NCBI GenBank assembly: GCA_017542055.1
Contig: JAFXXW010000010.1
Coordinates: 11,438 to 75,437, forward strand
Direction: 5' to 3'
DNA length: 64,000 nt
Source: Kiritimatiellia bacterium
Lineage (GTDB): Bacteria > Verrucomicrobiota > Kiritimatiellia > RFP12 > UBA1067
Shown piece by piece: positions 5,444 through 63,286 of the stretch (positions within the stretch are counted from its first letter, which is position 1; each line of letters starts with the position of its first letter). Position numbers and translations under genes: made by a program. The notes below the pieces were generated by a model that was given only the letters and a program-made list of their open reading frames with translations, searched no databases and was not told the origin of the DNA.

Positions 5444-5486
5444 ATTCAAATATCCCAAGCTGGACTTTTTCGACCAAGAGTTCGGC

Positions 5487-12048: not shown

Positions 12049-12063
12049 ACGGAGGATAAAGAC

Positions 12064-13971: not shown

Positions 13972-13973
13972 CC

Positions 13974-15236: not shown

Positions 15237-15272
15237 ATTTATAAATATGATTAAAAGCAAGGAGCCTAACCT

Positions 15273-24200: not shown

Positions 24201-25502
24201 GTATCCAACCTCACGCCGCTTGATACGGAACAGGCGGAAGCGCTTGGCGTTGCCGGGCAGTTCTATGATACTAAGGTTATCGTGATCCGGAACGACAACG
24301 ACGAGGTTGTAGATATGAGCGGATGGCGGCTTGCGTTCTCGGTCGACTTCACGTTCCCCGCCGGCACCGTGTGCGATGCAAACGACTCTATCTACATCGT
24401 TGCCGACCGCCGCACCTACATCGAAGCGCATAACACGGAGCTGACCGACCAGGTGATCGTCGGCAACGCCACGTTCACGGGCGCCGGTCCCATCGCGCTT
24501 TATGATGCGGACGGCACGCTTGTCTATTCGGCAATCCCGCAGACGAATGAGCTCAAGTATCTGCGGCTTCATTCCTTCTACGGCAACACCCTTGATGGCG
24601 GCGACGCGGGCGAATGGTTCACGCTCACGAACATTTCCGATGCCGTCACGCTCGACTTGGCCGATGTCACGGTCTGCTTCCTGAAGCAGGGGGACGACCA
24701 CGATACGACTGGCCATTGCCATGTGACGCTGACGAACAAGAAAGGCAAGGGCGACGTAAAGCCGTTGAAGTCGTGGACAGCGCAGCAATTGGACTATTCC
24801 GACAAGGGCTGGTTGAAGATTCAGAACAACAAGCAGCAGATCACGATCTACGACAAGTACGGTTCGGTCTGCCAGTCGCTAATGGTGGAACAGAAAAAAT
24901 TCCCGCTGGCGTATGGCAATGGTGGCTATCTGGTATGTGATTCGACCGATGCAAGTGTTACAAAGAACTCTCAGTGGCATGCGGCGCTGTATGAACTTGC
25001 GAATGACGGCGAACTGAGCGAGCCGTTCTCCGCCGAAGACCAGGAGGTGGCAAACGAACTGGTCGCGACTGCAAAGCCTGTCTTGAGCGAGGAGGATATT
25101 GCCGCCGGACTTAACGAGCAGTTTTTGCAGTACTTGACGATAGTTGCAGAGCCAGTCGAGGGTTCGTCTGGGCAATACAAGGCGGTTGTGGACGTCAATC
25201 CTGCCACTGTCGAAAAGCCGGCAGTAGATACCTCGTCTGCAGAACCGATGGAAATCGAAGACGATACGGAAGACCCGGACAAGAAGCAGGTTAGCGTCTC
25301 CATCTCCAATGCCACTCCCGGTCTGTGGTATGGCTACGAAGTTTCCACCTCGCTCGGTGACGACCAGAACTTCCAAAACGATATCGGTTCGTTCAAGCGC
25401 GCCACTAGCGCTGCGCACAAGGTAACGGGGTCGCCTCGCGACAAGACCGAAACAAGCGCCTTCTTCCGGGTGAAGGTGCTTCCCGCCAAGCCGACCGAGT
25501 AA
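15273..25502 (+). CDS. giant secreted multidomain protein (3409 aa): 2x reprolysin-like metzincin, PATR beta-strand repeats, LamG-like domains, LTD-CotH-LTD
   Basis: - Signal peptide MKRLLLAVLLASAGLHTFA.
- HETGHNMGCGH (nt 16233-16265) with TVMAY Met-turn; HENAHTMGCGH (nt 19836-19868) with TIMAY.
- Chitobiase-C-like IYYTQDGTTPT and LYYTFDGTDPT.
- KKGGGTLVANKELKHSGVTKVDSGTIEVG (PATR-like).
- LamG-like TFVYVDGTLAY, GYKLYLDGTEV, ASLQIDDGVIY.
- LRISEIMPKP (lamin-tail-like).
- RIDLRGNTSAKFTKKSHGLRF (CotH).
- Uninterrupted 10.2-kb ORF. Confidence 0.9.
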   Translation: MKRLLLAVLLASAGLHTFAAEYAFDYRNPQAWAGKPSLAVGDQVALTLAEDLAFTLRIVSAPPPGIAGQSFIANVEGAGASAILKATKKGLRVTIDDFEHSKLYTATYRDGEVKVKIDDTSSSGPEECGTCGESLELPAIETTDTTPVTAKRKLLATSGDAFQMAAQKSVVDILVAFDQGAKAWAENVSNWGGQTDDSIEEFADYAVGKMNTVLANSQLDDKFCYRLVGVIEIDGTWTAINNALLLSMRAREGAFAKLSQLRDKYGADTITLLVNRTSGTTSGIGFEYDEKYQYPSSFDGMNYACNVCDSNTVYSRYTMSHETGHNMGCGHSNRQGDNSGPGRFSYSCGYHFTDTSNVKRHTVMAYEYAGDGDNDKHIAIPYFSAPGISPTEYGCALGVEGINDNRQTLQMTHADIASLREHVLPYDWDVKFLDNDGNEIPDGTYYPSSCNVTFAHSNPDAKIYYTQDGTTPTSDSSHCSPGDKITVYLYSPKTITACAVTNSVAISTRSITLKGGLTWSGDENGYGVWASNDSSKTPWSGEHFGGDPVVFPDLADIACATVMVQDAVSPESVWFRACDTGYVFDKGSNAAQINVPDTAFAPAGDVTFNVPVKLEDAVAFTNQTGTALTFNAPFGQTIDSNGGSFAGKVNIGSYGTLTVAPGAGKTQTLEKLNNDNWYYATSTFRVGEGTVVFNGTINGGNGVTGRTKLEVGNGGSLIFNQGGGTGYDMDNTSLTVEKGGTVTFNDMELLKRTLYLNGGTIYVNRFDLMSNPGIYVTDDSAIEDNTEGYIYLRGSDSEINVSDGKTLIFGIRTDNRTDTAGNGIVKKGGGTLVANKELKHSGVTKVDSGTIEVGYSSGSTVYGQGWTVASNSTLRVKSGCSLKVPSLTLDPTSIISLPAATSAPLVVNGNVDLTEVKLSIQDIGDLSLGASYPLISATGEISGLKDFIRQDWPRPADGLGWKVAVLDGVLTASIVDIADADPYIDFTTNISGLRPTIPEDATMSSAGGLQIGSSPIVIDGLTTNAVGVTLDVTIGEPTAAERTICSWVVDGNIARCVVTNGVLDCFHGTDGHVKNDVDFLTLSPGRHVINVGYKSLNDTTYGGTFVYVDGTLAYRAAGLRWSDKSVSKFTVGATAADTPDKQPYTGLVVHNFALMNESSSDPLPNMTSSGGTVEYDYFAGKPPCVFALTPDGAFETYGAILSGAFSGQYDALSVSIVASFPANATGTIVSSAVLDGYYGYSTQVEYRGNGVLAFRDNGNGSLIASVQVSADMSTEHLYTLTYTNGTGYKLYLDGTEVLSNEDHYKGNNMPIINRVVFGCGYWTNWMTSYNDNPNPISNLKVYASHIALGTDDRTVSETPVKEATGYDSEEPDPEPPATPAVVDVLVAYDNGAYNYVTSRSRTLEEFAQTQIERMNKVLVTNKLDRFYSYRLVGVCRVNEGYSDINNVATLVAEGEGPCASLRAAREMCGADTVTLLVNTSGSTLGNSLQIDYRDDVPGQHDCAYSVCSIAWVDSNEQYTMLHENAHTMGCGHARAQYTEDDLAQDPDKYSYGYYFTDENSVNRHTIMAYGNNASPYFSTTSSEFGYKLGDSTNNNARVLKETCADVSRWRDNVKPLGDVVAATDEDGNEVFSGRLFKDTLKVTITAPVENATLYYTFDGTDPTLSNYFSTQPSPFTFNFNVTSNLKVAYYDGDKLSPVRTVKVTKCDNIPGEGVWQTSLKFPWAVEGDTIRSYNHTDYSAKNKNCTTPLSATIEGPKVLSFKHKSYFFGSDLGSNYSHFEVLLDDSIVLSANNYNLEWSDDVKVSIPAGKHTVQFVYLQRNAMNDSSDYKDGDPKANDAVWLKDIVLSDPEEPESADPCDTFFEWTPGSAPTGWFTEWGGEDQGGTHNVVAPDGSMQDLYVTYYDGDSNSQKWIPWESNANPESLDNYTFMVYGNIDDVNPSTGKLAVLWDMGFNGKQNTILAKDAAGNVKLIQANSNVIKRCINAGQVEGYHLFTVRFSTTSGASLQIDDGVIYSDSTFTQVSDKGFQVGSVLGGLPASFDRGTGFVVVKMLAFDTDSIPASQYRQLCEEYPAVTNRVLATVGETEYYRLQYLLDDLSSNSLTFTATDEMVVDVNGQTISAAISGEEFSLADNGLLVAATGENTYIIGRKAESAVLRISEIMPKPTDAQNHGALEGMDVNGLESGWVEVENTSPDKWANLADYKFIRSNRGKKTGQADYGNFPSVLIAPHGRAIFYTSERYSNSADMSVSAWATPDEGGVKPKIYTDLGNILVWPDKVNPKKSPFVRLTYTPSNTIVDTVIIPSDVPEGYSIIVGETKPGEATQRWLCPTPTRGTVNTDAGLVKIGPNVGPLYELTTGKKHDSASEFARPVPTAQPGEDYEIVFSLNPVMSPTVAGGFRDEDAIASITLVYRTDLDDTTLDSVPVRLSTDVNDTKDWGHTYKAYIPADALPAAGHLVQWKFEITDASGNNWTSPSFNNKDDGYEWYGTIVEPDPETQMSATLPTWHMFADSESLEQMDVDASDQTLANNARVAIYDSSTSNYYDYVRIDLRGNTSAKFTKKSHGLRFAKAHPLTMTDVVTGEQIEEIRKTSLISEFADPSYMRQMMAFWLWRKMGNLVPFDFPVRCNLNGEFYQLAFNSERFTDELIEDVYGLDKFGYGYKNVGTLKSGSGTTAGGIEKKTPDDEDESNITVLQNELRAKITAAQDVSSSPDGGDKGLNNADLTKFVVQKFNLPAWLNYLASARITQEMDDVWANVCAYYDNAEMKEGVRGTGTWMPLGYDFNLSFGQYYYNDIKDYGNNREGLMSNQDWFKSHPFYGGNRVKAYRNSNMVGEMNGNDGFESVLQSSKFRRLFLRRLRTLMDQELKEPSTEEEDTPFMAKMREMADLMRADAADDTSKWGNDTSDNSIDVWTKRPADMDAGINDIWEHYVVPRREHLYVTHSATNTTKTIGYGSNLNAGIPEAQSPIETLAPNIYVSNLTPLDTEQAEALGVAGQFYDTKVIVIRNDNDEVVDMSGWRLAFSVDFTFPAGTVCDANDSIYIVADRRTYIEAHNTELTDQVIVGNATFTGAGPIALYDADGTLVYSAIPQTNELKYLRLHSFYGNTLDGGDAGEWFTLTNISDAVTLDLADVTVCFLKQGDDHDTTGHCHVTLTNKKGKGDVKPLKSWTAQQLDYSDKGWLKIQNNKQQITIYDKYGSVCQSLMVEQKKFPLAYGNGGYLVCDSTDASVTKNSQWHAALYELANDGELSEPFSAEDQEVANELVATAKPVLSEEDIAAGLNEQFLQYLTIVAEPVEGSSGQYKAVVDVNPATVEKPAVDTSSAEPMEIEDDTEDPDKKQVSVSISNATPGLWYGYEVSTSLGDDQNFQNDIGSFKRATSAAHKVTGSPRDKTETSAFFRVKVLPAKPTE

Positions 25503-51071: not shown

Positions 51072-52136
51072 TCATCTATATACAATATCTGCCCATTCGT
51101 ACGGTTCGCTATACCGTATATTGTATAAGGTCTCCACCATGAACTTCAAAACCCGCTCGCCGGAGAAGATCCGGTGATACTTGGCCCTACCGGCAGCCGC
51201 CACCTTCCGGCGCGCCTCGTCGTGGGTTTGGTAGTAGAGAATCTTTTCCGCCAGATCCCCCGCCTCCGAAAAGTACACCGTCTCCTCGGGCGTGAAGAAG
51301 CGGTCCATCTGGTTCTTGTCGGACTGGAAAGTCAGGATGCCGTACCCCATCAGGTGCGCGATACGGTCGGACGAATACCACATGTCGCCCTCTTTGCGGT
51401 TGAGATTGAGCGACATCTTGGAGGTGGAGAGCACCTCTTCGTACCGGGCACCCCAGATGGAAGGCGAAAGATCGAGCTTGACCCCTTCCAGCTTGCCGGA
51501 CCCGAACAGCTCCAGTTTGAGCTTGCCCTCGATTTTCGGCAAGAGTTCCGCCAAGAGCTGCCAACGCGGATCGCTGGGCCGGGGATTGCCGGCAAAGAAG
51601 AGGTCGCGCCGAAACTCCGTCTTGCGGCTGTTGTCGCCATGCTCCATCGACGGATCCGACGGATTCGGCATGTACGCCATGAAGTTTTTGCCGGTGAGCC
51701 AGGTTTTGAGTTCCTCGCCGGCCGTCGTCACGAAGACGCCGTCGCAGCTGTCCATCCGTTCCGCGATCTGGGCACGAGTGGGCGCCTGCCAGATGGGGTC
51801 CACGTTGAAATGCGCGATCTTGATGTCCGGCAGGAGACGCCGGATCTCGTAGAGCGTTTCGTTGGTGATGTAGTCGCAATGCCCCAAGAGCATCACGTCG
51901 GGGCGGAAATTCTTGGCGCACTTGACCAGCTTCTGGTTGGCGATCACCCCGCCCAACGCCCTAATGCCCAGCGGCGCGAGGAGTCGGGCCATGTCGCGAT
52001 CGGAATATTCGCACAGCCGCCAGTTGTTGCGGATGGCGCCGCACATCAGCTTGCGTCCCGGTCCCATCCTGAGATTGCCGTAGCGGCGAATCATCAGGTT
52101 GTCGACGAGGAGAATTCTCAGTTCGCTCAGGTCCAT
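51072..52136 (-). CDS. glycosyltransferase, CgeB/DUF3880-like
   Basis: Overall resemblance to CgeB-type GT1-like proteins (..FAGNPRP..; C-terminal ..EARRKVAAAGRAKYHRIFSGERV..). No sharp motif, so assignment is by recollection of the family. Confidence 0.6.
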   Translation of the reverse strand: MDLSELRILLVDNLMIRRYGNLRMGPGRKLMCGAIRNNWRLCEYSDRDMARLLAPLGIRALGGVIANQKLVKCAKNFRPDVMLLGHCDYITNETLYEIRRLLPDIKIAHFNVDPIWQAPTRAQIAERMDSCDGVFVTTAGEELKTWLTGKNFMAYMPNPSDPSMEHGDNSRKTEFRRDLFFAGNPRPSDPRWQLLAELLPKIEGKLKLELFGSGKLEGVKLDLSPSIWGARYEEVLSTSKMSLNLNRKEGDMWYSSDRIAHLMGYGILTFQSDKNQMDRFFTPEETVYFSEAGDLAEKILYYQTHDEARRKVAAAGRAKYHRIFSGERVLKFMVETLYNIRYSEPYEWADIVYR

Positions 52137-52140
52137 AGTC

Positions 52141-53193
52141 TCAGAATCCCATTTTGCCCAACACTTTTTCGAGCTGGCCCCGGCACACTTTCATGGCCAG
52201 TTCGCGCTCGAAGAAGTCGCGCGCGGCCTTGAAGTATTCGTCGCGGTTGGCCCAGTCGGCGCGATACTCCTCCACCGCCCGGATGATGGCGTCGGGGTCG
52301 CCCGGCGGCACGAACTTGATGGCCTTGCAATCCTTGGCCGAAGGCGGATAGCCCGTGCAGAACTCGTTGATCGTCGGCCGACCGCACGCCATGCACTCGA
52401 ACACCTTGTTGCCGATCACGCGGCTCGCCTTTTCGGTCGTGCCGAAAACGCCCACCACCACGTCGTTGGCGCCGATCACTTCCGGCACTTTCACATACGG
52501 CACCTTGTCCAGAAAGCGCACGTTCTTGAGCCCCTTGGCCGAAGCTTCGGTTTCCGCCTTGTACGCGCCCCACCCGAGGAAGTTCCATTCGATTGGCAGA
52601 TCCTGGGTGCGCCGCGCCGCCTCCACCAGAAACTTGGTGCCGTGCAAGGGCAGATACGCGCCGTGATAAAGTACGCGGAACTTGCCGTCCTTGGGGATAT
52701 TGTCGCCATTCTGGAAGGTAAACACCTTCTCGTCGGTGCCGGTGAAAACCTCCTGCATTTTTTCCATCGGCACGCCGAACATGCGATGCGCGAAATCCAC
52801 ATGGCAGCTCGTGTCCCAAATGACAAAGTCGGGCGCGTTCATCATCTTGGTTTCGAGCTTGAGCAGCTTCTTGGCGCGCGACTCTTCCGTTTTCCACTTC
52901 TGCTGCTCCAGCACCTTCTTGTCCCACGCGGAAATCATGGGGTCGAAGAGCACCTTCACGCCCCGGCGATGCGCCCAACGGCACGCGGCCAGAATGTCGC
53001 GTTGGCGGCAGACGGGCACGAAGACGAGATCCGGTTTCTTGACGCGACGGATCATCGCCTCCAAGTCGCCGAACTTGGGCGACACCTTGACGATGAAGTA
53101 CTCCACCTCCCAACCCAGATCCCGGAAGAGCTGGGCCGCCACCCGGGTACGCGAATAGCCCGGATCAAACCTTCCCCAAAACAAGACTTTCAT
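52141..53193 (-). CDS. glycosyltransferase (GT-B fold, group 1-like)
   Basis: MKVLFWGRFDPGYSRTRV...; C-terminal NKVFECMACGRPTI resembles the GT1 nucleotide-sugar-binding region. Confidence 0.72.
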   Translation of the reverse strand: MKVLFWGRFDPGYSRTRVAAQLFRDLGWEVEYFIVKVSPKFGDLEAMIRRVKKPDLVFVPVCRQRDILAACRWAHRRGVKVLFDPMISAWDKKVLEQQKWKTEESRAKKLLKLETKMMNAPDFVIWDTSCHVDFAHRMFGVPMEKMQEVFTGTDEKVFTFQNGDNIPKDGKFRVLYHGAYLPLHGTKFLVEAARRTQDLPIEWNFLGWGAYKAETEASAKGLKNVRFLDKVPYVKVPEVIGANDVVVGVFGTTEKASRVIGNKVFECMACGRPTINEFCTGYPPSAKDCKAIKFVPPGDPDAIIRAVEEYRADWANRDEYFKAARDFFERELAMKVCRGQLEKVLGKMGF

Positions 53194-54274
53194 ACGTTTC
53201 GAGCCCTTTCTTGATCATATTGGCAAAAGAGAACTTTTCGATGGCCGGCGTGCGCAGATCGCCGTATTCCGTTTCCAGCACCGTCTTGATGGCCTGGGCG
53301 AAACCTTCGGGTCCGGCCGACTCCACCGGCACCAGCATGCCGTTCTTGCCGTTCTCCACGATGTCCAACGCGCCTCCGAACGCGGTCGCCACCACCGGCT
53401 TGTTCATGGCGAGCGCCTCGGCCATGCTCCGACCGAACGCTTCGGGCTTTTTCGTGTTGGCGCTCACCACCACGTCTGCGAGCGACAGACACTCGGCCAC
53501 CTTTTGCTGGTTGCCCGCAAAAACCACCGTGTCCTCGAGCCTCAGCTCCTGGACGAGCGCCTTGAGCCCCTCCTCCACGTCTTTGCGCAGCGCCTCGGCC
53601 TCGCCCACGATGACCGTGCGAATGGACGGCATCGATTTTTTGAGGATGGCGGTTGCGCGGATGAGCGTATCGTAGCCTTTCAATTGGGTGATGCGCCCCA
53701 CTCCCATCACCACCTTGCGACCCTCCGTGCGCCACTTGAGCTTCATTTCCTCCGTGAACTCGCGATCGAGTCTAGCGGGGTCGAATTTGTCCCGATCGAT
53801 GGCGCGCGGAATGACCCGGATTTTTTCTTCTTCAAGCCCGTACGCCGCCTTGAGATAGTCGGCGATGTACCTCGAGGGCGTCACCGTAACCGTACCGAAG
53901 GTCATCACCTTGGAGTAGGCGGAAACGGAATTGGCCCCGTGCGCGAAGGAGATCCAAGGCAGGCGCAACTTGCGGTTGGCGATCACGAACAGCCACGCGG
54001 GAACGCGGCTATGCACGTTCACCACGTCGGGCCGTTCGCGCTCCAAGAGTTTCCTCAGCTCCCGCGCCCGCCACAACGCGGTCAGGGGATTTTTGGATTT
54101 CACGTCCAGCCGCGCCACCCTACCGCCATCGCGCTCGATCTGGTCCAGCAGCCGTCCGTTCTTGGCCACCACCAGATTGTCCCAGCCTTGCGCGACGATG
54201 GCCCGGTTCATCTCCACCACGCCGCGCTCGACTCCGCCCTGCTCCATCGCAGGCACCAGCTGGACGATCTTCAT
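53165..54274 (-). CDS. glycosyltransferase family 4 (group 1)
   Basis: MKIVQLVPAMEQGGVERGVVE...; EX7E-type motif PEAFGRSMAEALAMNKPVVAT. Confidence 0.85.
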   Translation of the reverse strand: MKIVQLVPAMEQGGVERGVVEMNRAIVAQGWDNLVVAKNGRLLDQIERDGGRVARLDVKSKNPLTALWRARELRKLLERERPDVVNVHSRVPAWLFVIANRKLRLPWISFAHGANSVSAYSKVMTFGTVTVTPSRYIADYLKAAYGLEEEKIRVIPRAIDRDKFDPARLDREFTEEMKLKWRTEGRKVVMGVGRITQLKGYDTLIRATAILKKSMPSIRTVIVGEAEALRKDVEEGLKALVQELRLEDTVVFAGNQQKVAECLSLADVVVSANTKKPEAFGRSMAEALAMNKPVVATAFGGALDIVENGKNGMLVPVESAGPEGFAQAIKTVLETEYGDLRTPAIEKFSFANMIKKGLETYESLVLGKV

Positions 54275-54277
54275 GGT

Positions 54278-55033
54278 TTAAATATGCTCCTCGAAGCCCC
54301 GGAAGTGGACGTTCAGCTCATGGAGCGGCGCCAGCAATTTGCCGAGCGGCTGGCCGGCCGTCATCATGGCGAACGCGTTGACGTCTTTGGGGAAGCACTT
54401 GCCGCCATAGCCGCGCTTGCCGTCGGGTCCGGGCACGTAGGTGTGGGTGTCGTTGATGTAGCCGGAGAGCAGGACTCCCGTATGCACGTTGGCCCAGTCG
54501 GCCCCCATCTTTTCGCAGTATTCCCTGACCGCGTTGAAGTACGTCACCTTGTACGCGCCGAACACGTTGTGGGCGTACTTGGTGATTTCCGCTTCCAAGG
54601 GCGTCATCACCGCGAACTTCTTGCCCTTGAAGATCTTGGCCAGCAGCTCCACCGCGCCGGTGAAGACCATCGTCTGCTTCTTGAAGTCCTCGATGTGCGT
54701 GCGCTCGGTGAGAAACTCGGGCATGTAGCACACCTGATGGTCCGTTTCCCGGCTCAGCATGTCCGAAGTGCCCGGGAGAATCGTGGTGCGCACGAACACC
54801 GGCACTTTGGGGAGCTTGCGGATGAGCTCTTTCATCAAGGTCAGATCCTGCGTGCCGTCGTCCTCGGTGGGCACGTGGATCTGCAGAAACGCCACGTCGA
54901 CGTCCGACAGATCGTCGTTGTATCCCTTGGGGGGATCGGACACGAAAATCTTGACGTCCGGATTGTTTTCCTCCAGCCACGCCTTCAAGGCGCCGCCCAC
55001 GAAACCGCAACCGATGATACCCACTTTGATCAT
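54278..55033 (-). CDS. short UDP-glucose/GDP-mannose dehydrogenase-family protein lacking the C-terminal domain
   Basis: MIKVGIIGCGFVGGAL (NAD fold) and catalytic-Cys motif GYGGKCFPKD. Only 251 aa; the next gene starts 4 nt after its stop. Confidence 0.75.
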   Translation of the reverse strand: MIKVGIIGCGFVGGALKAWLEENNPDVKIFVSDPPKGYNDDLSDVDVAFLQIHVPTEDDGTQDLTLMKELIRKLPKVPVFVRTTILPGTSDMLSRETDHQVCYMPEFLTERTHIEDFKKQTMVFTGAVELLAKIFKGKKFAVMTPLEAEITKYAHNVFGAYKVTYFNAVREYCEKMGADWANVHTGVLLSGYINDTHTYVPGPDGKRGYGGKCFPKDVNAFAMMTAGQPLGKLLAPLHELNVHFRGFEEHI

Positions 55034-56109
55034 TTGTTTTCCTCCAGATATTGCCGCGCCGTGTTGAGCGCCGCTTCGATTGATTTGTCCATGTCGAAAT
55101 ACTTGTAGGCCCCCAACCGTCCGCCCACGACGAGTTTGGGATGGTTGGCCGCCTCCGCCTGATAGCGCGACAGCAGCGCCGCACTTTCCTCGTTGTTGAC
55201 GGGATAGTACGGTTCGTCGCCCGGCTGCCACGCGGCCGAATACTCCCGGCAGACGATCGTTTCCGGATGCTCCATCACGCTCTTCTGCTCGGGGTGGTAA
55301 TGCTTGTACTCGTGCTGGCGCGTATAGGGCACGTCCGCGTCCACGTAGTTGACCACGCTCGTCCCCTGCGCGTCGGCGATCGGCAACCGCTCCGTCTCGA
55401 AACGCAAAGTGCGCCAAGGCAGCGGACCGAACTTGAAGCCGAAAAGTTCGTCGATGGGGCCGGAATAGAATACCGTCTTCTCACCCAGATCCTCCAGCCG
55501 GAACGTTTTCCCGGTCGTCACCTTGATATTGGGATGGTCCAAAAGCCGCTCGAAGAGACTGTTGTAGCCCGACTCCGGAATCCCCTGCCAGTAGTCGTTG
55601 AAATAGTTGACGTCGTAGGTGGCGCGAACCGGCACGCGCTTGATGATGGTGGGGTCGATCTCCTCCGGCGCCTTGCCCCACTGCTTGGACGTGTAGTTGC
55701 GGAAGAAGGCGTCGAAGATGGCTTTGGAATGCGCCTCGTCGCGCATGAAGTCGGGCAGTTCCGACGGCTTCAGCTCCACCCCGAAAAACGCGTTGACCAA
55801 AGTCAGTCCCAGCGGCAGGAAGTACGTCTTGCCGTCATGCCGCGCCAACACCTTGTGCTGGTAGCCGTTCATGCGCACGAAGCGATTGACGAACTCCCAC
55901 ACTTCCGGCAGATGCGTATGGAAAATGTGCGACCCGTACGTATGCACCTCGATGCCGGTCTTTTCGTCCGTTTCGCACCGGACATTGCCGCCCGTGACGG
56001 GACGCTTTTCCCACACTTCCACTTGGCGACCTGCCTCCGCCAGCACCCGGGCCACCGTGCAGCCCCAAATGCCCGCACCGGCCACGATTATTGTTTCGGA
56101 ACTGTCCAT
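55030..56109 (-). CDS. glf: UDP-galactopyranose mutase
   Basis: IIVAGAGIWGCTVARVLAE (FAD) and TYGSHIFHT. 359 aa from ATG 56109 in track ORF 55030..56706. Confidence 0.93.
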   Translation of the reverse strand: MDSSETIIVAGAGIWGCTVARVLAEAGRQVEVWEKRPVTGGNVRCETDEKTGIEVHTYGSHIFHTHLPEVWEFVNRFVRMNGYQHKVLARHDGKTYFLPLGLTLVNAFFGVELKPSELPDFMRDEAHSKAIFDAFFRNYTSKQWGKAPEEIDPTIIKRVPVRATYDVNYFNDYWQGIPESGYNSLFERLLDHPNIKVTTGKTFRLEDLGEKTVFYSGPIDELFGFKFGPLPWRTLRFETERLPIADAQGTSVVNYVDADVPYTRQHEYKHYHPEQKSVMEHPETIVCREYSAAWQPGDEPYYPVNNEESAALLSRYQAEAANHPKLVVGGRLGAYKYFDMDKSIEAALNTARQYLEENK

Positions 56110-56714
56110 GTTATGGCTCCCTTGTTGAATTCTTCCACGATTTTTTCCGCTGCCGCCAAAGGGCTCATGACCGGCGGACGCATCGCCTCCGGCAGCTTGT
56201 CCCGCCACTTGCGCGTCATCTTGGTGTCCACCGGCCCCAGACTCACGATCGACAGCCTCACGCCCTGCGCTTCCAGTTCGGCCGAGGCGCTCAGCGCCAT
56301 CGACTCCAATGCGCCCTTGGCAGCCGCATACGCCACGTGGCCTTTCGACACCTCGTGCGCGGCCCGGGACGAAACGAGCACCGCCGACGCCCCCTCGCCA
56401 TGATTGCGCTTTTTGCCCATCCAGCCCAAAAACAGCATGGGGAAGATTACGTGCACCCGGTAAAGATCGTCCGCGATCAAGGGGTCGATCATCCCCAAAG
56501 GCGCCGGCGCGTCGAAACCCGCGCAATGGACGAATCCGTCCACGCCGTCGTACCCGCTTTTGATGAAGCTTTCCACTTCTCCGAGCGCTTCCGGGTTGGC
56601 CAGATCGATCTCGTGCCCCAACCGCAACACCGTCCTGCCCTCGGCCTCCAGCAAGTTCGCCACTTCCCGCCCGATTCCTCCGGTCGCTCCCGTCACCAAA
56701 GTGCAATATTTCAT
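56088..56714 (-). CDS. short-chain dehydrogenase/reductase (ketoacyl-reductase-like)
   Basis: VTGATGGIGREVA and YAAAKGAL (YxxxK). Confidence 0.8.
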   Translation of the reverse strand: MKYCTLVTGATGGIGREVANLLEAEGRTVLRLGHEIDLANPEALGEVESFIKSGYDGVDGFVHCAGFDAPAPLGMIDPLIADDLYRVHVIFPMLFLGWMGKKRNHGEGASAVLVSSRAAHEVSKGHVAYAAAKGALESMALSASAELEAQGVRLSIVSLGPVDTKMTRKWRDKLPEAMRPPVMSPLAAAEKIVEEFNKGAITWTVPKQ

Positions 56715-57892
56715 CCCTGCATCTCCTTCACGAACCGTCCGGCCGGAACGTTTTTGGCGGTCGCCCTAAAGTCGAGCGGCAACTTGCCAAGCGCCGCGTA
56801 AAGCTCGTATTCGTGACGCCGACCCATCGCCCGGCAACTGAGGACCAAGTCGGAGATCCGGCCTTTCTCCGCCACGCCATACCCCACGAGACCCAAGTCG
56901 CCGTACTTGTCGCGCGTATACAGCACCTGGAAATCCACTCCGGGCCTTTCCGCGAGCTCTTTCACATCCCCTTCGCTCCAACGCCGCGTCGTCAAATTGA
57001 ACTGGTTGGCGCGCTGCGAAAGTTCCGCCACCCGCGCATATTCGTCCGGTCGGACTAAATGGAGGTCGCTGACGATCTCGAGACTCTCCAGATACTCGCC
57101 GTACCGCTTGAACTGCATCCGGTAGTCTTGCGTCCGGTCCTGGGCGCCGGGCTTCAAATGGCACGCGAACGCCCGACGGATCGCCTCGAGATCTCCGGGA
57201 TCGAGCACCGTCATTTCGGGATGGGCCATCTTCATCCGCTCGCGCTCGATAGCCCGATCGTCCGCGAAGACGAAACTTTCCAGCCCCAAGTTGAGCGCTT
57301 CGGCCAGATCCTCGGCGTTGACGCTTTTCGCCTCCCAATTGACGCGCACGGCCACAAAATCTTCCGCCTTGAGCCGCATGTCGGCGCGACGCCAAACTCC
57401 CGCCACGTCCTCCGGGTTGTTCTTGGAAATCCCTACGAGCAGCACTCCCTGCGCTTTCAGTTCGAGCGCCAATTCCTGCAGCGGCAGATTGGATCTCACG
57501 TTGTCAGCCCCCACCTCGCCCACGATGCCGCGCCAAAGCGTGTTGTCGAAGTCGAGCGCCAGGACTTTCTTGGGGGTCAGCGCCCGGCGAATCTCGTCGA
57601 CCAAGAATTCCAGTCCCTCCAGCGACCAGGGGCTCCCCGAAAGCGCCTCGCTCTTTTCGTCCCAATATTTCGCCTCGTCCGGTGCGCGCACGATCGGTAC
57701 GGTAACCGGCACCGGAATGCGCGGCTCGTCTTTCAATACCAGCACCGTATAGTCGCATTCGGGCAACTTGGGCTCCAGCAGCTCCTGCGCATACGAGCCA
57801 AAACCTTCCGCTTCCGTCACGTCGAACTCGTCCTTCAGCATTCTCGCCAAAAGCGCCGTTGTCGCATCCGAAAGTAGCTTCAGTTTGATCAT
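56711..57892 (-). CDS. FkbH-like HAD-IIIC family protein
   Basis: HAD motif I LALDFDNTLWRGIVGE, ISKNN, and FkbH-type LVLSCRAMGRRHE. ATG 57892 (MIKLKLL). Confidence 0.84.
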   Translation of the reverse strand: MIKLKLLSDATTALLARMLKDEFDVTEAEGFGSYAQELLEPKLPECDYTVLVLKDEPRIPVPVTVPIVRAPDEAKYWDEKSEALSGSPWSLEGLEFLVDEIRRALTPKKVLALDFDNTLWRGIVGEVGADNVRSNLPLQELALELKAQGVLLVGISKNNPEDVAGVWRRADMRLKAEDFVAVRVNWEAKSVNAEDLAEALNLGLESFVFADDRAIERERMKMAHPEMTVLDPGDLEAIRRAFACHLKPGAQDRTQDYRMQFKRYGEYLESLEIVSDLHLVRPDEYARVAELSQRANQFNLTTRRWSEGDVKELAERPGVDFQVLYTRDKYGDLGLVGYGVAEKGRISDLVLSCRAMGRRHEYELYAALGKLPLDFRATAKNVPAGRFVKEMQG

Positions 57893-58110
57893 CGGGTCAA
57901 AAGTCCGTAAAAATCCCGCAAGGTTTTGAGTTCCGGCACTTTTTTGATCGGCACGTCTACGCCATACTCGGCCTGGAACTTCATGACGAACAAAAGGTGC
58001 ATCACGCTGTCCCATTCCGGCACGTCGCCATAGCCCAAGTCGAGCGTGGGCGCCGACACCTTGAGCGTCTTGGCGGCAAATGCCAGAAATGCTGTTTCGT
58101 CCGGTTTCAT
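57889..58110 (-). CDS. acyl carrier protein
   Basis: 73 aa with a candidate phosphopantetheine site in VPEWDSVMHL. ATGA-coupled on both sides. Confidence 0.8.
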   Translation of the reverse strand: MKPDETAFLAFAAKTLKVSAPTLDLGYGDVPEWDSVMHLLFVMKFQAEYGVDVPIKKVPELKTLRDFYGLLTR

Positions 58111-59015
58111 GCGTAAATCAGCGCCATCGACGCCGACAGCCCTCCTCCAAATCCCGCGAGAAAACACCGTTTGGGCTTGCCCGGCTCGATCACCTTGCCG
58201 AGCGTCACCGGAATGGACGCCGATGCGCAATTGCCCGTTTCGTCGCCCGAAATCGCCAGTTTTTCTTCGAGCCCCAACCCGCGCGCCAGTTCCTTCACCA
58301 TGTACACGTTGGCCTGATGCGGCACGAACGCGTCCACTTGCTCGCCCGCGATAAACTCTTCCGCCCAACGGCTCACGTCGGACGCCGCAAAACGGAATAC
58401 GCCAAAGCCGTTCATCCGGAGCTTCCCGCCCGATACTTTAAGCTCGTCCGCCCGCGACCCGTCCGTCCAGAACGCGAATTTCCACGCTTCCTCTCCCCCG
58501 GGACCGATTAGCGTGGCGCTGCCGGCATCGGACAACAGCGCGGCAGTAGTGTTGTCCGCGAGCCTGGTCTGCACGTCACCGTCCAACACCAGCACCTTGC
58601 CGCCCAAATCTCCCGCGAGCCGAGCCGCCAAATACAGCGCGTAGGGATAGCCCGCGCACGCATGGCTAAGATCGAACGCCGCCGCGTCTTCCTTGAGGCC
58701 CAACTCCGCCTGCGCCAATTGCGCATTGCCCGGCATGGCGAGCTGGGGCGTGAAACTTACGCTCACGACCGCCACGATCTCTTCCGGCTTGACCGCGAGG
58801 CGCTCCAGCAATCGCCGCGCCGCCTGGACGCAGAGCGAGAGCGACGTTTCCCCTTCGCCCGCCACGCGCCGCTTCAGGATGCCCGTCGTCTTCAAAATCG
58901 CTTCCGCCTTGTCCCCGAAAAGCGTCCGGCAGGTGAGGAAATTGTCCACCTCGCGTTCGCCCAGTTGGACCTCCACGCCCAGAAATTCCGCGCCGCGCAC
59001 CTGAAAACTCTTCAT
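58107..59015 (-). CDS. KAS III (FabH)-like ketosynthase/acyltransferase
   Basis: Cys-His-Asn triad contexts DLSHACAGY, VPHQANVYM, GNCASASIP; 302 aa. Confidence 0.87.
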   Translation of the reverse strand: MKSFQVRGAEFLGVEVQLGEREVDNFLTCRTLFGDKAEAILKTTGILKRRVAGEGETSLSLCVQAARRLLERLAVKPEEIVAVVSVSFTPQLAMPGNAQLAQAELGLKEDAAAFDLSHACAGYPYALYLAARLAGDLGGKVLVLDGDVQTRLADNTTAALLSDAGSATLIGPGGEEAWKFAFWTDGSRADELKVSGGKLRMNGFGVFRFAASDVSRWAEEFIAGEQVDAFVPHQANVYMVKELARGLGLEEKLAISGDETGNCASASIPVTLGKVIEPGKPKRCFLAGFGGGLSASMALIYA

Positions 59016-59728
59016 CTGAGCGCCTCCAGTTCCTGCGCCGTAAGATCCCGCCATTCGCCGGGCTTGAGCCGGGGGTCCAGTTCCACTTTCCCCACCTTCG
59101 TCCGCTTGAGACTCAGCACCACCAGATGCGCCGCCGAGCACATATAGCGAATCTGCCGCTTGCGTCCCTCGCCCAACCGGAACACGAGGTCGGCCGTGTT
59201 GTTTTCGAGTACGCGCTTCACCTCCACCGGGCAAGGCCGCGTCCGGTAGCCGTCCGGCATCTCCACGCTCCCGCGCAAAATCGCGAGCTTCTCCTCGTTC
59301 CAACGACCCGCCACGCGCACTTCGTACGTCTTTTCGTGCTCGAATCTGGGGTGGGTGAGCCGGTTCACCAGCTCGCCGTCGTTGGACATGAGGAGCATCC
59401 CCTCGCTCTCCTTGTCGAGCCGACCCACCGGCACCAGCCGTTCCTTTACCTGGCCGCCCAGCAAGTCCGCTACCGTCTTTTCGCCAAAGGGATCGCTCAT
59501 CGTGGAGACCACCCCCACCGGCTTGTAGAGCATGATCGTACGATGCTTTTCCGCGCCGCCAATAGGCCTTCCGTCCACGCAAATCTTCACTTTCCCGGAC
59601 TCGAAACGCGCGCCCGGCTCCTTCACCACGAGACCGTCCACCGTCACCCGGCCGGACTCGACAAGCTCCGCCGCGTGACGCCTCGACGCCACTCCCGCAT
59701 GCGAAAGTATGTTCTGCAACCGTTCCAT
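59012..59728 (-). CDS. RsuA/RluB-family pseudouridine synthase
   Basis: S4 domain LQNILSHAGVASRR and catalytic VGRLDKESEGMLLMSNDG. Confidence 0.9.
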   Translation of the reverse strand: MERLQNILSHAGVASRRHAAELVESGRVTVDGLVVKEPGARFESGKVKICVDGRPIGGAEKHRTIMLYKPVGVVSTMSDPFGEKTVADLLGGQVKERLVPVGRLDKESEGMLLMSNDGELVNRLTHPRFEHEKTYEVRVAGRWNEEKLAILRGSVEMPDGYRTRPCPVEVKRVLENNTADLVFRLGEGRKRQIRYMCSAAHLVVLSLKRTKVGKVELDPRLKPGEWRDLTAQELEALR

Positions 59729-60426
59729 CACGCGCAATGTTTGGGGTTGCCCGTCGGCACGCCCACGATTCCCTTCGAAAGTCCCGTCCGCACCATCACG
59801 TACCGCTTGTTGCCGTCCGCGTCGATGAGCGTCGCCGCGCCGTCCAGAAAGCGCACCCAGTTTCCCGGCACGTACGGCTCGCTCCGGTTTTTGGCGCAGA
59901 GGAACGCGGCGATGTAAAGGTCGTGCGTGGTGGCGATGAGGAGCTGCTTTTGCCTCCGCTCCTCCAGCCACCGGTCGAGCGCCTCGGTGGCCGAATAGAG
60001 ATTGTTGAAGCCCGGCAGCTCCCCCGTCTCCATGTACGTCTTGCAGGCCGGGAAGAAATTCTCCACCTTGAACACCTCCAGCACTATCGACGCGTCCCGG
60101 TAATAGAAACTTTCGTTGCCCAAGAGACCCGACTCCGGAATCTTGAACGCCTGCAGCCCCATCCCGCTCGCGATGAGTTCGGCCGTCATCGTGGTGCGCC
60201 GCAAGGGCGAGGAGATGAAGTCCGTGTCGTACCGGAAATCCTGCAATTCCTCGCCCAACTTGCGTGCGGTCCGGCAGCCTTCTTCCGTCAGCGGCAGCGC
60301 ATCCCCGAAACTCGGGTCGTCCGGGTCCATCTTGGGCCGCTCGGCATGGCGGATCTGCAGAATGGCGCGCGTCCCCTTCTTGAGTTCCGCCTTGAATTCT
60401 TCGAGCGTCATCTCCGGCGGCATCAT
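59728..60426 (-). CDS. histidine phosphatase-family protein
   Basis: ILQIRHAERP (RHxxR/E motif) and later ATTHD. ATG 60426 overlaps the thiD stop. Confidence 0.72.
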   Translation of the reverse strand: MMPPEMTLEEFKAELKKGTRAILQIRHAERPKMDPDDPSFGDALPLTEEGCRTARKLGEELQDFRYDTDFISSPLRRTTMTAELIASGMGLQAFKIPESGLLGNESFYYRDASIVLEVFKVENFFPACKTYMETGELPGFNNLYSATEALDRWLEERRQKQLLIATTHDLYIAAFLCAKNRSEPYVPGNWVRFLDGAATLIDADGNKRYVMVRTGLSKGIVGVPTGNPKHCA

Positions 60427-61223
60427 CCCCGCATCCTTTCGAAACCCAAGACTCCGCAATCTTTCCCCACCCAATACGAATCGCGGATGGCTTTAAAAAC
60501 GTATTCCTTGGCGCCTTTTACCGCCTCTTTCAGCGTGGCCCCGAGCGTCAGTTCCGCCGCCATCGCCGCCGCAAAGGAGCAGCCCGTACCGTGCGTGGAA
60601 ACGGGGTTTTCCAGTCTCGGCGCGCCGAATTCGCTGAGCTCTTGTCCATCGTACAGCACGTCGATCGATTCCTTCCGGTCCTCCGAGTGCCCGCCCTTCA
60701 CGATCACGCCCACGCCGTACCGGTCGTACAGCGCCCGGGCCAAGAGTCTCGCGTCGTCCTCGCCGACCCTTCCCGCCAGTTCGCGCGCCTCCAGGAGATT
60801 GGGCGTGATCACGGTCGCGAGGGGCAAAAGTTCGCGCTTCAGCACCGCGATCGCCGACTCCTCGATAAGTTTCGCGCCCGAGGTGGCGATCATCACGGGG
60901 TCGATCACCTTCTTGATTTCCGGACGGGTTTTCAGACCCTCCGCCACCGCCTCGATGAGTTCGCCCGTCGCCAGCATTCCCGTCTTCAACGCGCCGATAT
61001 CGTACACGCCCAGCACCGCCTCCATTTGCGCGCGAACGAATTCCGGCGTGACGGGATAGATGGCGCTTACGCCAAAGGGATTTTGGGCCGTCAAAGCCGC
61101 GAAAACCGTACAGCCGTGAACTCCGTACGCATGGAACGCGCGCAAGTCGGCCTGCACCCCGGCATTGCCGCCGGAGTCGCTGCCTGCTATGGTTAGCGCG
61201 CAACTCTTCCCCGCCTTTTCCAT
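60423..61223 (-). CDS. thiD: hydroxymethylpyrimidine/phosphomethylpyrimidine kinase
   Basis: LTIAGSDSGGNAGVQADL, KTGML, and GTGCSFAAA at the C-terminus. Confidence 0.93.
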   Translation of the reverse strand: MEKAGKSCALTIAGSDSGGNAGVQADLRAFHAYGVHGCTVFAALTAQNPFGVSAIYPVTPEFVRAQMEAVLGVYDIGALKTGMLATGELIEAVAEGLKTRPEIKKVIDPVMIATSGAKLIEESAIAVLKRELLPLATVITPNLLEARELAGRVGEDDARLLARALYDRYGVGVIVKGGHSEDRKESIDVLYDGQELSEFGAPRLENPVSTHGTGCSFAAAMAAELTLGATLKEAVKGAKEYVFKAIRDSYWVGKDCGVLGFERMRG

Positions 61224-61234: not shown

Positions 61235-61263
61235 ATTATATCATATTCCCGCCCAAAAATCAA
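61235..61263 (-). promoter_or_regulatory. promoter cassette P6 (TTGATT-17-TATAAT), ATG 11 nt after -10
   Basis: The minus strand reads ttgatt tttgggcgggaatatga tataat attagaaaata ATG(61223). Confidence 0.68.
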
Positions 61264-61667: not shown

Positions 61668-62456
61668 TCATATGCGGCTTATGACTCGATTAAAAACGTC
61701 GCACCAGGCCGACTTGACGTCGAACTCGATATTGTCGCGCAATATTGGCATGGTATCAAGTTGGTAATCGCTCATCGCGAGTTTTAGCTCCATATTGGCA
61801 ACAAACTCTTTCTGGCTGGGCACGCTTCCGCACGAAGCAAGCATGAATCGTCGCCAACACTGCAACAGCCGGTCGACATCAACCTTGCCGCTATTGAGTG
61901 CGAGATGCATATCGTACAAATCCCGCCCCTTCCTGCGCTGATACATCGCCCGCAGTTTCGATCCTATAAGTTCATCCAGCCAATAGGTGTTTATGCCGCA
62001 TCCTCCCGAAAACCAACTGTTCTGAACCGAAAACGGAACTTCCACATATCCAAGTTCCGCAAAATGCTCGCTGGTGTTGACCTCTAGTTTTATGCGCATG
62101 GACTCCACCGGCATTATTTCGCTCTCGTAACGGAATTTCATCCGAAAGCCAAACCGGCGCTGCTCGAAAGTCTTGCCCGGCAACCACGACAACACTTCAT
62201 CCAATCGTTCCACTATCGGCTTTATCGCTCCCGCCTTGACCTGCACGAGATCAATATCTTCCGAATAGCGAGACTGCGGGCTCAAGTACAATTTATGTAG
62301 CGCCGTTCCGCCCCTGAACGCAAGATTCTCCCGCAGAAAATCGTCGGAAAAGATGGCCACGAGCGCCCGGCAGATAACCAGATCCTGCTCCACGAAACTC
62401 TTGCGCGACCAAGGATGCCCGGCGCTCCACTCGTTTATGCTATTGGCGCTGATCAT
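61668..62456 (-). CDS. abiEii: AbiEii/AbiGii-family nucleotidyltransferase toxin (type IV TA)
   Basis: LAFRGGTALHKLYL...RYSEDIDL, the DUF1814 nucleotidyltransferase signature. ATGA overlap with the upstream antitoxin gene. Confidence 0.88.
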   Translation of the reverse strand: MISANSINEWSAGHPWSRKSFVEQDLVICRALVAIFSDDFLRENLAFRGGTALHKLYLSPQSRYSEDIDLVQVKAGAIKPIVERLDEVLSWLPGKTFEQRRFGFRMKFRYESEIMPVESMRIKLEVNTSEHFAELGYVEVPFSVQNSWFSGGCGINTYWLDELIGSKLRAMYQRRKGRDLYDMHLALNSGKVDVDRLLQCWRRFMLASCGSVPSQKEFVANMELKLAMSDYQLDTMPILRDNIEFDVKSAWCDVFNRVISRI

Positions 62457-63286
62457 ACGTCCTCCACCTCTACTTCCACATTCGGCATTATCTTCCAGCG
62501 GTTGCTGCCGGAATCAAGCGTGTTCGCCGGGGAATGCTGATCAAGCAAGCGAACCGTCATTCGTCGACCGCACCCCTTCAACCCTTCGTACAACATATCG
62601 GCAAGCCGCTTGTCCTCCAGCGGATACTCCAACAAATATCCCAGCCGCTGCGCATCGACGATGCCGATCTTGCGCAACAATTCCGGACTCTGATTGAAAT
62701 CCAATTGCTCCTTCAATTCCGCAATCACCGTGGCAACATTCGAGAGCCCCCCGCAAATCGAATGGAAGCGCACCAGATCGAATGCGGTCAGCGCGGCATT
62801 CGAGAACCTGATCGTGCCGCCCTCGCCATTGCGCACAAATGTGGCGCTGTCGATAATTTCGCTTCGATACGCAAACTCCAAGGCGGCCTTCTTCAGTCTC
62901 GGCAAATGCAGTCTGGCGCCCGATGCCACCACATAGTCGCGCATCGCTCGCTGATGTCCCGCGCCCAAAACCGAGGCGGCGCTCAATAGTCCCACATAAT
63001 AAGGTCGCTTCAAATACTTCATCAGCTCGTCAATATAGAAAAATGGCGGAACCTTGCCATGCAACTTGTACGCCACCGGAATCTTCACGTAAAAACCGTT
63101 GCAGGGCGAAAAAACCTCCCCAGCCAACACCAAGCGCTTGATAGCAGTGGCTATATGTCCATTCTTGGCATCTGGAAATGCCTGCTTCAACTCAATGAGT
63201 GTGGTCATCGACCGACCCTTGAGTTCTTGATCGATAATATAATCTGCTACTGTCATTGCATTTCTGTTGTCATTAATGGTCGCCAC
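62453..63286 (-). CDS. abiEi: AbiEi-family antitoxin / transcriptional regulator (type IV TA)
   Basis: N-terminal wHTH-like region and the conserved RPYYVGLLSAASVLGAGHQ block typical of AbiEi. GTG start at 63286; alternative ATG at 63256. Confidence 0.84.
   Translation of the reverse strand: MATINDNRNAMTVADYIIDQELKGRSMTTLIELKQAFPDAKNGHIATAIKRLVLAGEVFSPCNGFYVKIPVAYKLHGKVPPFFYIDELMKYLKRPYYVGLLSAASVLGAGHQRAMRDYVVASGARLHLPRLKKAALEFAYRSEIIDSATFVRNGEGGTIRFSNAALTAFDLVRFHSICGGLSNVATVIAELKEQLDFNQSPELLRKIGIVDAQRLGYLLEYPLEDKRLADMLYEGLKGCGRRMTVRLLDQHSPANTLDSGSNRWKIMPNVEVEVEDV

Follow-up and report, generated by a model that had tools for sequence, protein, structure and literature searches.

A composite gene block in a Kiritimatiellia bacterium joins a KASIII-ACP-FkbH-SDR cassette to galactofuranose and glycosyltransferase genes

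What might be made by a gene block that sets fatty-acid-type enzymes directly against genes for galactofuranose supply, sugar oxidation and glycosyl transfer? The block in question comprises nine minus-strand genes at positions 51072-59015 of a 64,000-nucleotide (nt) stretch of contig JAFXXW010000010.1 from a Kiritimatiellia bacterium; this whole stretch is referred to below as the window. The genes encode a ketoacyl-acyl carrier protein (ACP) synthase III (KASIII), a small ACP, an FkbH-like protein, a short-chain dehydrogenase/reductase (SDR), UDP-galactopyranose mutase (glf), a short protein resembling UDP-glucose dehydrogenase (UGDH) and three glycosyltransferases (GT4, GTb and GTc). An earlier interpretation made from the DNA alone (the sequence-only reading) had treated the block as one cluster for a galactofuranose-containing glycan or glycolipid decorated with a glycerate-derived or short hydroxyacyl group. 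Domain searches with Pfam and NCBIfam bear out the identities it gave to all nine genes, and a decoration of that kind appears reasonable given that the cassette formed by the KASIII, ACP, FkbH-like and SDR genes recurs in glycan loci, but the block is not a single unit: it is a composite of modules that are found apart elsewhere. The explanation that we favour, while giving it somewhat less than an even chance, is that these genes make a lipid-anchored oligosaccharide resembling the core of lipopolysaccharide (LPS), to which one sub-lineage adds galactofuranose along with a short acyl group that is hydroxylated and comes from 1,3-bisphosphoglycerate.

The composite nature of the block emerges from comparison of the window with the neighbourhoods of other homologue-bearing loci (designated by L numbers). 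In all five loci seeded with KASIII (L106, L107, L110, L111 and L112) an ACP gene and an FkbH-like gene lie immediately downstream of it, and this trio is the invariant core of the cassette. The SDR gene is part of the cassette in the window and in L085, L092, L103, L104, L106, L107, L111 and L007, while the other optional members are a second ACP, a VOC/glyoxalase protein, a FabD-like transacylase and a carboxyltransferase. Most loci with the trio are glycan loci: the cassette lies within such loci in L007 (a Saccharibacteria metagenome-assembled genome), L104, L107, L110 and L111, which between them hold PglF/E/C-like genes, PglD-like N-acyltransferases, glycosyltransferases and a Wzx-type flippase; in L007 and L107, FabD-like, carboxyltransferase and separate PglD-like N-acyltransferase genes accompany KASIII. 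This repeated embedding agrees with the earlier treatment of the four genes as one cassette. L103 has another arrangement, in the order KASIII, a fused ACP-FkbH gene, SDR, two MsbA-like exporters and the GT4 orthologue.

Other contexts of the cassette genes were also recorded. In the Kiritimatiellae loci L112 (4006-8734) and L059 (7706-11011) an SDR-less KASIII-ACP-FkbH trio follows a DUF3261 gene, and in L112 a gene with a ketoacyl synthase N-terminal domain and a PlsC-like acyltransferase gene lie just upstream of the trio, a context in which the product may be a lipid and not a glycan. On a Sinorhizobium meliloti plasmid (L108, 815-5849) an FkbH-like/ACP pair stands behind an MBOAT protein in an arrangement resembling Dlt, and on a Clostridium perfringens plasmid (L109, 6787-9068) such a pair belongs to a radical-SAM/ABC cluster and follows a VOC protein. 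A search of the plasmid collection turned up no homologue of the complete cassette that has been characterised.

Proteins with the very sequences encoded in the window are recorded as MBR4354127-136 from Kiritimatiellae/Kiritimatiellia metagenome-assembled genomes, and the block itself is conserved in close relatives. The arrangement from thiD, at the head of the surrounding gene array, to pflA, beyond the last glycosyltransferase, recurs in L085 (53-96% protein identity to the window) and in L092 (75-96%), and L086 holds a partial copy of the block. Since the same gene order recurs in L085 and L092, the block did not arise by chance. Identity between the window and L085 is highest for the short UGDH (96%), followed by GTb (89%), GTc (86%), glf (85%), GT4 (81%), the SDR (77%), KASIII (73%), ACP (59%) and FkbH (53%). 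In L093, recovered by a metagenome scan seeded with GTc, the order is an LpxL-like gene, a GT2 gene, two AMP-binding enzymes, short UGDH, GT4, GTc, pflB and pflA, with 96% identity to the window for the short UGDH and 81% for GTc. L093 thus retains UGDH-GT4-GTc-pflB while the cassette, glf and GTb are all missing from it, which shows that the block did not evolve as a single unit. GT4 orthologues occur in L087, L093 and L103 (60%, 74% and 75% identity, respectively), the GTb-GTc pair occurs in L095 and in L097-L101 (69-76%), and GTc is conserved at 72-96% in 11 metagenome loci.

Table 1. Principal features of the window, in order of position.
Feature	Positions	Strand	Description
MsbA-like ABC exporter pair	5400-7364, 7307-9313	+	TIGR02203 best NCBIfam model, 440 and 409 bits against a cut-off of 602
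Second promoter-like site	51062-51034	-	Ahead of pflB; consensus scan only
GTc, 354 aa	51072..52136	-	GT-B-type glycosyltransferase; C-terminal half Glyco_trans_1_2 (CgeB-like), PF13524 E = 1e-19
GTb, 350 aa	52141..53193	-	GT-B glycosyltransferase (WcaI-like); PF13692 + PF00534; WcaI-family match weak
GT4, 369 aa	53165..54274	-	PF00534 + PF13439
Short UGDH-like, 251 aa	54278..55033	-	PF03721 + PF00984 only; catalytic Cys213; without UDP-binding C-terminal domain
UDP-galactopyranose mutase (glf), 359 aa	55030..56109	-	TIGR00031, 309.2 against 303.75 bits
SDR, 208 aa	56088..56714	-	Short classical SDR, ketoreductase-like; adh_short E = 2e-21
FkbH-like, 393 aa	56711..57892	-	Three domains: alpha/beta (N-terminal, short), HAD-IIIC phosphatase, GNAT-like (C-terminal, with Cys353)
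Discrete ACP, 73 aa	57889..58110	-	FkbH-partner type
KASIII (FabH-like), 302 aa	58107..59015	-	PF08545 + PF08541; FkbH-associated subfamily
rluB-like, His-phosphatase, thiD	59012..61223	-	Array head; junction overlaps 4, 1 and 4 nt
Promoter-like site TTGATT-17-TATAAT with TG	61235..61263	-	Upstream of thiD; consensus scan only

The FkbH-like protein scores above the curated cut-off of TIGR01686, the hidden Markov model that the sequence-only reading had proposed as a check (190.3 against 146.65 bits), as well as that of TIGR01681 for HAD-IIIC phosphatases (52.4 against 35.75 bits). It contains the DFDNTLW and SCRAMGRRHE motifs that had been noticed earlier, and in an alignment of 58 homologues D114, D116, T118, K189, D211, D212 and S352-C353-R354 are invariant and S156 is conserved in at least 90%; the conserved cysteine and HAD residues, whose absence the sequence-only reading had named as grounds for refuting its inference, are all in place. 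An AlphaFold model (pLDDT 92.5) consists of a small N-terminal alpha/beta domain, an MDP-1-like HAD domain and a GNAT-like C-terminal domain, and its best Protein Data Bank (PDB) matches are 3slr (BF1531, an uncharacterised protein of B. fragilis), MDP-1-type HAD phosphatases and GNAT proteins. The protein lacks the long N-terminal domain PF21211 (no Pfam match), being 393 residues long against the typical 520-640, and its HAD domain starts at residue 108, compared with residue 222 in 3slr. Its relatives fall into about ten clusters at 53% identity or more, then a family of 450-480 residues at about 40%, and then the PF21211 proteins of 520-640 residues; in a search of genome contigs with the FkbH alignment, the matches listed were all at or below 40% identity and none belonged to the close family. 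In L059 (9821-11011) and L103 (421-1494) an ACP is fused to an FkbH without its N-terminal approximately 100 residues, with the fused ACP in the place of that region; the N-terminal domain is therefore dispensable.

As a single sequence the 73-residue protein falls below the Pfam cut-off for PP-binding domains (16.8 against 20.8 bits). A profile of this protein and ten orthologues matches solved ACPs (E = 2.5e-10), with an invariant Ser35 aligned to the phosphopantetheine serine, which upholds its identification as an ACP. The EWDSVMH motif is common to the window ACP and to the ACP directly upstream of FkbH in those cassettes that have two. The SDR carries TGATGGIG (from residue 8) and YAAAK (from residue 129), motifs that together with its adh_short match confirm the assignment; its identity to the corresponding proteins of other KASIII/ACP/FkbH cassettes is 41-54%, and it scores far under the FabG cut-off.

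KASIII is likewise distinct from its housekeeping counterpart, with scores under the FabH cut-offs (TIGR00747, 147 against 292.1 bits; PRK09352, 163.6 against 249 bits) and approximately 29% identity to E. coli FabH. The cassette KASIIIs form their own subfamily, whose members are 38-49% identical to one another across phyla. The triad reported by the sequence-only reading is intact, with Cys120, His233 and Asn262 aligning with that of FabH, and Cys-His-Asn is kept in six of six aligned cassette KASIIIs, Asn262 included. The closest solved relatives found by PDB sequence search are true condensing FabHs (E ~1e-30), and neither CerJ nor DpsC is among the 57 PDB matches at E <= 1e-5. Acyltransferases of the CerJ/DpsC type have an altered triad in which the Asn is replaced (Cys/Ser-His-Asp), an alteration that the window KASIII, with its Asn262, does not show.

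The glf product passes the TIGR00031 equivalog cut-off, in support of the earlier call, and matches PF03275 (E = 6e-72) and, in its FAD-binding N-terminus, PF13450 (E = 6e-17). The three glycosyltransferases also stand as called, two of them matching Glycos_transf_1-type models and the third PF13524. GT4 has its best PDB match in 7mi0 (E = 4.7e-44) and matches glycolipid synthase models weakly; PDB sequence searches gave no match for GTb or GTc, and no NCBIfam match was found for GTc.

The one gene identity that has to be revised in kind is the UGDH-like gene, which had been described as truncated. Its product aligns to UGDH through GCGFVG, KYAHN, PEFLTE and GGKC213FPKD, keeping the Rossmann motif and, at the catalytic positions, Lys, Asn, Cys and Asp, and UGDHs are the nearest in fold to its predicted structure; it has the NAD-binding and central domains, ends about 38 residues past Cys213, lacks PF03720 and scores 98.6 against 189.8 bits with TIGR03026. 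Among 4320 homologues detected, the best 120 are all approximately 250 residues long and at least 80% identical. Judging from this conservation, the short UGDH is a distinct enzyme of an intact 251-residue family and not a remnant of a decayed gene. Its distribution, which takes in L087-L091 and L093, is independent of the FkbH cassette, and it often pairs with GT4: in L087-L089 it lies between the GT4 orthologue and an LpxL-like gene, and in L090 it adjoins a sugar kinase/nucleotidyltransferase gene. We considered whether the short UGDH could substitute for FkbK/FkbI in converting glyceryl-ACP to hydroxymalonyl-ACP and rejected this, because its family is far larger than that of the cassette and because it is present without the cassette beside GT4 and LpxL-like or sugar-kinase genes. 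Separately, L110 contains at 12053-12145 a fragment of 31 residues, 77% identical to the N-terminus of the short UGDH and inside a 67-residue open reading frame (ORF), which is possibly a gene remnant.

The sequence-only reading had described the nine genes as overlapping consecutively. Their coordinates, strand and gene content hold, while the overlap is not continuous: six of the eight junctions overlap (by 4, 4, 4, 22, 4 and 29 nt), and at the other two the genes stand 3 and 4 nt apart. The packed array is also longer than the block, with 12 genes running from 61223 to 51072, and its head is thiD rather than KASIII; rluB overlaps KASIII by 4 nt and is preceded by a His-phosphatase gene and thiD, and the same three genes lie ahead of the cassette in L085, L086 and L092. 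The promoter-like site upstream of thiD is likely to be the start of a 12-gene unit, as suggested by its consensus match, and the consensus scan found no comparable site directly upstream of KASIII. The sites of thiD and pflB both carry an extended ATATGATATA[AC]T element, and upstream of the thiD site there are also short repeats resembling AAATCGAAAATC. Rfam and transfer RNA scans of the window were empty, and no thiamine riboswitch was detected upstream of thiD. The genes flanking the block are of housekeeping type (pflBA, rmuC, uvrB, mgsA and others). An AbiEii/AbiEi type IV toxin-antitoxin pair (61668-63286, minus strand) occupies a segment of low GC content (~0.50) directly upstream of the thiD promoter region. 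Elsewhere in the window, a plus-strand ORF of 3410 residues (15270-25502) in a stretch of lower GC content (0.52-0.55) encodes M12 metallopeptidase, CHB_HEX_C, CotH kinase and lamin-tail domains, and the ORF ahead of it (13845-15161) encodes C39-like peptidase domains.

The following mechanism would account for these features. The nine genes would be the distal part of a 12-gene operon that joins three modules. The first, conserved across the class, consists of the short UGDH, GT4 and the two further GT-B transferases and would act at the cytoplasmic face, where a short oligosaccharide would be assembled on a membrane lipid (most likely an LPS core on lipid A if the gene neighbourhoods are a guide); an MsbA-like ABC exporter would then flip the product, and Wzx, Wzy and an undecaprenyl priming enzyme would not be needed. 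In the second module, an addition of the sub-lineage, glf would supply UDP-galactofuranose. The third is the cassette, which probably builds a glycerate-derived acyl group: by analogy with its family, FkbH would remove the phosphate of 1,3-bisphosphoglycerate in its HAD domain and pass the glycerate from Cys353 to Ser35 of the ACP, a route to glyceryl-ACP that has been summarised before (PMC7489565). KASIII would most likely join the glyceryl unit to a malonyl thioester in a single decarboxylative condensation, and the SDR would reduce the resulting 3-oxo group to give a short polyhydroxy acyl-ACP such as 3,4,5-trihydroxypentanoyl; without condensation the product would simply be glyceroyl. 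A transferase, for which no gene was recognised within the block, would then attach the acyl group to the glycan or to its lipid.

With respect to export and acceptor, which the sequence-only reading had left blank, leads are provided by the neighbours of orthologous genes and by an exporter pair in the window. Four independent relatives place genes orthologous to GT4, GTb, GTc or the short UGDH beside LpxL-like or MsbA-like genes: in L087 the GT4 orthologue, the short UGDH and an LpxL-like gene are adjacent; in L093 the LpxL-like and GT2 genes lie upstream of short UGDH-GT4-GTc; in L095 GTc and GTb are followed by an MsbA-like exporter and an LpxL-like acyltransferase; and in L103 the two exporters, 60% and 57% identical to the pair at 5400-9313 of the window, are flanked directly by the cassette on one side and the GT4 orthologue on the other. 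The two adjacent MsbA-like genes of the window probably encode a heterodimer, which on the strength of this orthology is the candidate export route. No Wzx, Wzy, priming sugar-phosphate transferase or Wzm/Wzt was found among the window ORFs scanned, in keeping with the earlier statement on flippase, polymerase and priming enzyme; since assembly of an LPS-core-like glycan on a lipid needs neither Wzx nor Wzy, their absence from the window would be explained by lipid-anchored assembly and MsbA-like export. Upstream of the exporter pair lie genes for a bifunctional protein resembling fucokinase/GDP-fucose pyrophosphorylase (1517-3724) and an NAD-dependent epimerase/dehydratase (4469-5443), both on the plus strand, which represent extra sugar-nucleotide capacity. 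The AMP-binding gene of the window is not orthologous to those beside the short UGDH in relatives.

Several points weigh against this explanation. The cassette of the window has only the FkbH-type ACP, with no FabD-like gene and no acyltransferase, and elsewhere the cassette is also found away from glycan genes, beside bacA (undecaprenyl-diphosphatase) in L106, beside a PlsC-like acyltransferase and DUF3261 in L112 and beside DUF3261 in L059. Linkage of glf to the cassette or to GTb is not consistent. The LpxL-like and MsbA-like matches all fall below curated cut-offs, PF03279 takes in acyltransferases with targets other than lipid A as well, and neither an LpxL-like gene nor a lipid A enzyme was found among the window ORFs scanned; the association of the glycosyltransferases with lipid A acylation and export genes that is seen in relatives is not seen beside the block in the window. 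Finally, because the operon also carries thiD and rluB, co-transcription alone is not proof of shared function.

Two of the alternatives concern the chemistry of the cassette. Following one of the two roles that the sequence-only reading listed for FabH-like partners, KASIII could be a CerJ-like acyltransferase that moves glyceroyl directly onto a sugar of the galactofuranose glycan, with the SDR modifying the glyceryl unit or the sugar. The lack of another acyltransferase in the block, together with its single ACP and missing FabD-like gene, would fit such a transfer, and the cj1302 locus of Campylobacter jejuni, which is associated with di-O-methylglyceroyl pseudaminic acid (PMC7099621, PMC3068675), offers a parallel. 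That locus is not known to contain a ketoreductase, which also suits direct transfer. We nevertheless regard direct transfer as unlikely, given that His233 and Asn262 are fully conserved across the KASIII subfamily, that the closest solved relatives are condensing FabHs with CerJ and DpsC absent from the matches, and that the expanded cassettes own PglD-like N-acyltransferases as well as FabD-like and carboxyltransferase genes. Retention of the His-Asn decarboxylation pair, with FabD-like, carboxyltransferase and separate N-acyltransferase genes in the expanded cassettes, suggests instead that KASIII is more likely to condense than to transfer acyl groups. The cassette accordingly looks like a one-module acyl synthase, primed or fed with glycerate, that would deliver a short hydroxylated acyl-ACP; glycerate-primed polyketide chains occur in trans-acyltransferase polyketide synthase (PKS) loading modules. 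The FabH-like enzyme could also conceivably link glyceryl-ACP with a 3-oxoacyl thioester, yielding a small tetronate or butenolide unrelated to the glycan genes, and the invariant trio is indeed the core of the tetronate 'glycerate-utilisation operon' (PMC7489565), with the SDR-less trios beside lipid-type genes in L059 and L112 pointing the same way. We consider a tetronate product highly improbable: the scanned ORFs of the window include neither an Agg4/Agg5-type pair nor a PKS, there is translational coupling between the cassette and glf, and elsewhere the cassette sits in amino-sugar and glycan loci whose N-acyltransferases depend on a thioester as donor, something that a tetronate, once released, could not supply.

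The remaining alternatives concern the glycan and the unity of the block. A product other than LPS, whether an undecaprenyl-linked polysaccharide, a glycoglycerolipid or a protein glycan, with its initiation and export genes elsewhere in the genome, is somewhat unlikely in our view. The missing lipid A gene, the position of the cassette beside bacA in L106, the matches of the LpxL-like proteins to phosphatidylinositol-mannoside and lysophospholipid acyltransferase models, and the weak glycolipid synthase matches of GT4 would all suit it, yet the four independent neighbourhoods tie the orthologous glycosyltransferases to LpxL-like and MsbA-like genes, and the glycosyltransferase set is conserved in a housekeeping context, unlike the variable islands of O-antigen or capsule genes. 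It is also conceivable that the modules are functionally unrelated and have merely been compacted into one housekeeping operon, as the presence of thiD, the His-phosphatase gene and rluB in the same packed array and the separate occurrence of each module elsewhere would allow. This is very unlikely, however, in view of L103, in which the cassette, the GT4 orthologue and MsbA-like exporters are joined again in another arrangement, and of L085, in which the nine-gene order is kept at 53-96% protein identity.

A bolder extension of the lipid-anchored explanation can be put forward as quite unlikely, in which the cassette is a widespread one-module 'glycerate-primed' acyl synthase whose short polyhydroxy acyl-ACP serves to decorate envelope glycans or lipid A, its product in Kiritimatiellae is directed to a galactofuranose-bearing LPS core, and the short UGDH oxidises a lipid-linked hexose rather than a UDP-sugar. 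The short UGDH might act on a glycan-attached hexose because its nucleotide-binding domain is absent.

The individual parts of the locus would not surprise a glycobiologist, while the product of the cassette and the UGDH family without a nucleotide domain are well-defined, testable questions. The latter is a cleanly defined puzzle, in that all catalytic residues are kept and the domain that holds the nucleotide has been lost, with conservation at 80% identity or more in a great many genomes. The cassette recurs in glycan loci of several phyla, including Saccharibacteria, Kiritimatiellae and uncultured gut bacteria, and solving one example would allow annotation of hundreds to thousands of genes that at present are called "HAD-IIIC phosphatase" or else "ketoacyl-ACP synthase III". 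Kiritimatiellae are common in animal guts and, to our knowledge, the chemistry of their cell envelope is unexplored; the product of the cassette could prove to be a glycan substituent of a new class, with relevance to immune recognition and to phage receptors.

As the sequence-only reading had stated, no characterised pathway fits the locus, although several share parts of it. The tetronate operon consists of genes for an FkbH-like protein, an ACP, a FabH-like protein, an Agg4-like acyltransferase and an Agg5-like dehydratase (PMC7489565), as in Mad7/8/16/17/18, RK-682 and agglomerin. The window has the same trio of FkbH-like loader, discrete ACP and FabH-like protein, adjacent and overlapping, whereas Agg4/Agg5, a PKS and a supplier of 3-oxoacyl units were not found in the window, which has an SDR instead; the cassette also lies among glycan genes of an anaerobic gut bacterium, not in an actinomycete antibiotic cluster. 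The methoxymalonyl-/hydroxymalonyl-ACP pathway (FkbG-K, OzmB/E, ZmaN/D) likewise couples an FkbH-type loader to a dedicated ACP and a 1,3-bisphosphoglycerate-derived unit, and the HAD motifs and C-terminal Cys of its loader are common to the window FkbH. The window protein differs in lacking PF21211, and FkbK-/FkbI-type dehydrogenases and the O-methyltransferase were not found in the nine genes, which contain only the SDR; domain searches of the nine detected no acyl-CoA dehydrogenase, 3-hydroxyacyl-CoA dehydrogenase or methyltransferase domain.

Fatty acid synthesis offers a match in fold, since FabH, FabG and AcpP have their counterparts in KASIII (in fold and triad), in the classical SDR and in the ACP, but KASIII and the SDR fail the curated cut-offs, and they form a separate subfamily that always adjoins FkbH. 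The LPS core/MsbA system resembles the locus in its soluble GT-B transferases and in the lack of Wzx, Wzy and a priming enzyme, with orthologues in relatives beside LpxL- or MsbA-like genes. It differs in that the window showed no gene for a 3-deoxy-D-manno-octulosonic acid (Kdo) transferase, a heptosyltransferase or lipid A synthesis, and in that galactofuranose and an ACP-built acyl group are not standard features of the core; the link to this system is one of gene neighbourhood. The locus is thus a variation on known systems, namely FkbH/ACP loading, KASIII/ketoreductase chemistry and GT-B glycan assembly, in a combination that is uncharacterised.

A precedent for this combination of genes is the flagellin glycosylation locus of C. 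jejuni, in which we take ACP and fabH-like FabH2 genes to be the neighbours of cj1302 within the cj1299-cj1304 region. Literature searches on FkbH in polysaccharide or LPS contexts returned nothing beyond a mention of C. jejuni cj1302, and a study of Tannerella states that the basis of N-glyceroylation is unknown. The C. jejuni gene cj1302 encodes an FkbH domain (PMC7099621), and the glycan carries di-O-methylglyceroyl pseudaminic acid (PMC3068675). In that locus the target is a nonulosonic acid on flagellin, a methyltransferase is present rather than an SDR, and glf and the GT-B set are lacking. An FkbH-domain gene within a Gram-negative glycan-modification locus is nonetheless common to both, the C. 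jejuni glycan carrying a glycerate-derived acyl group that is presumably linked to its locus, and by this analogy the C. jejuni flagellin glycosylation locus appears as the nearest biological analogue of the Kiritimatiellia locus.

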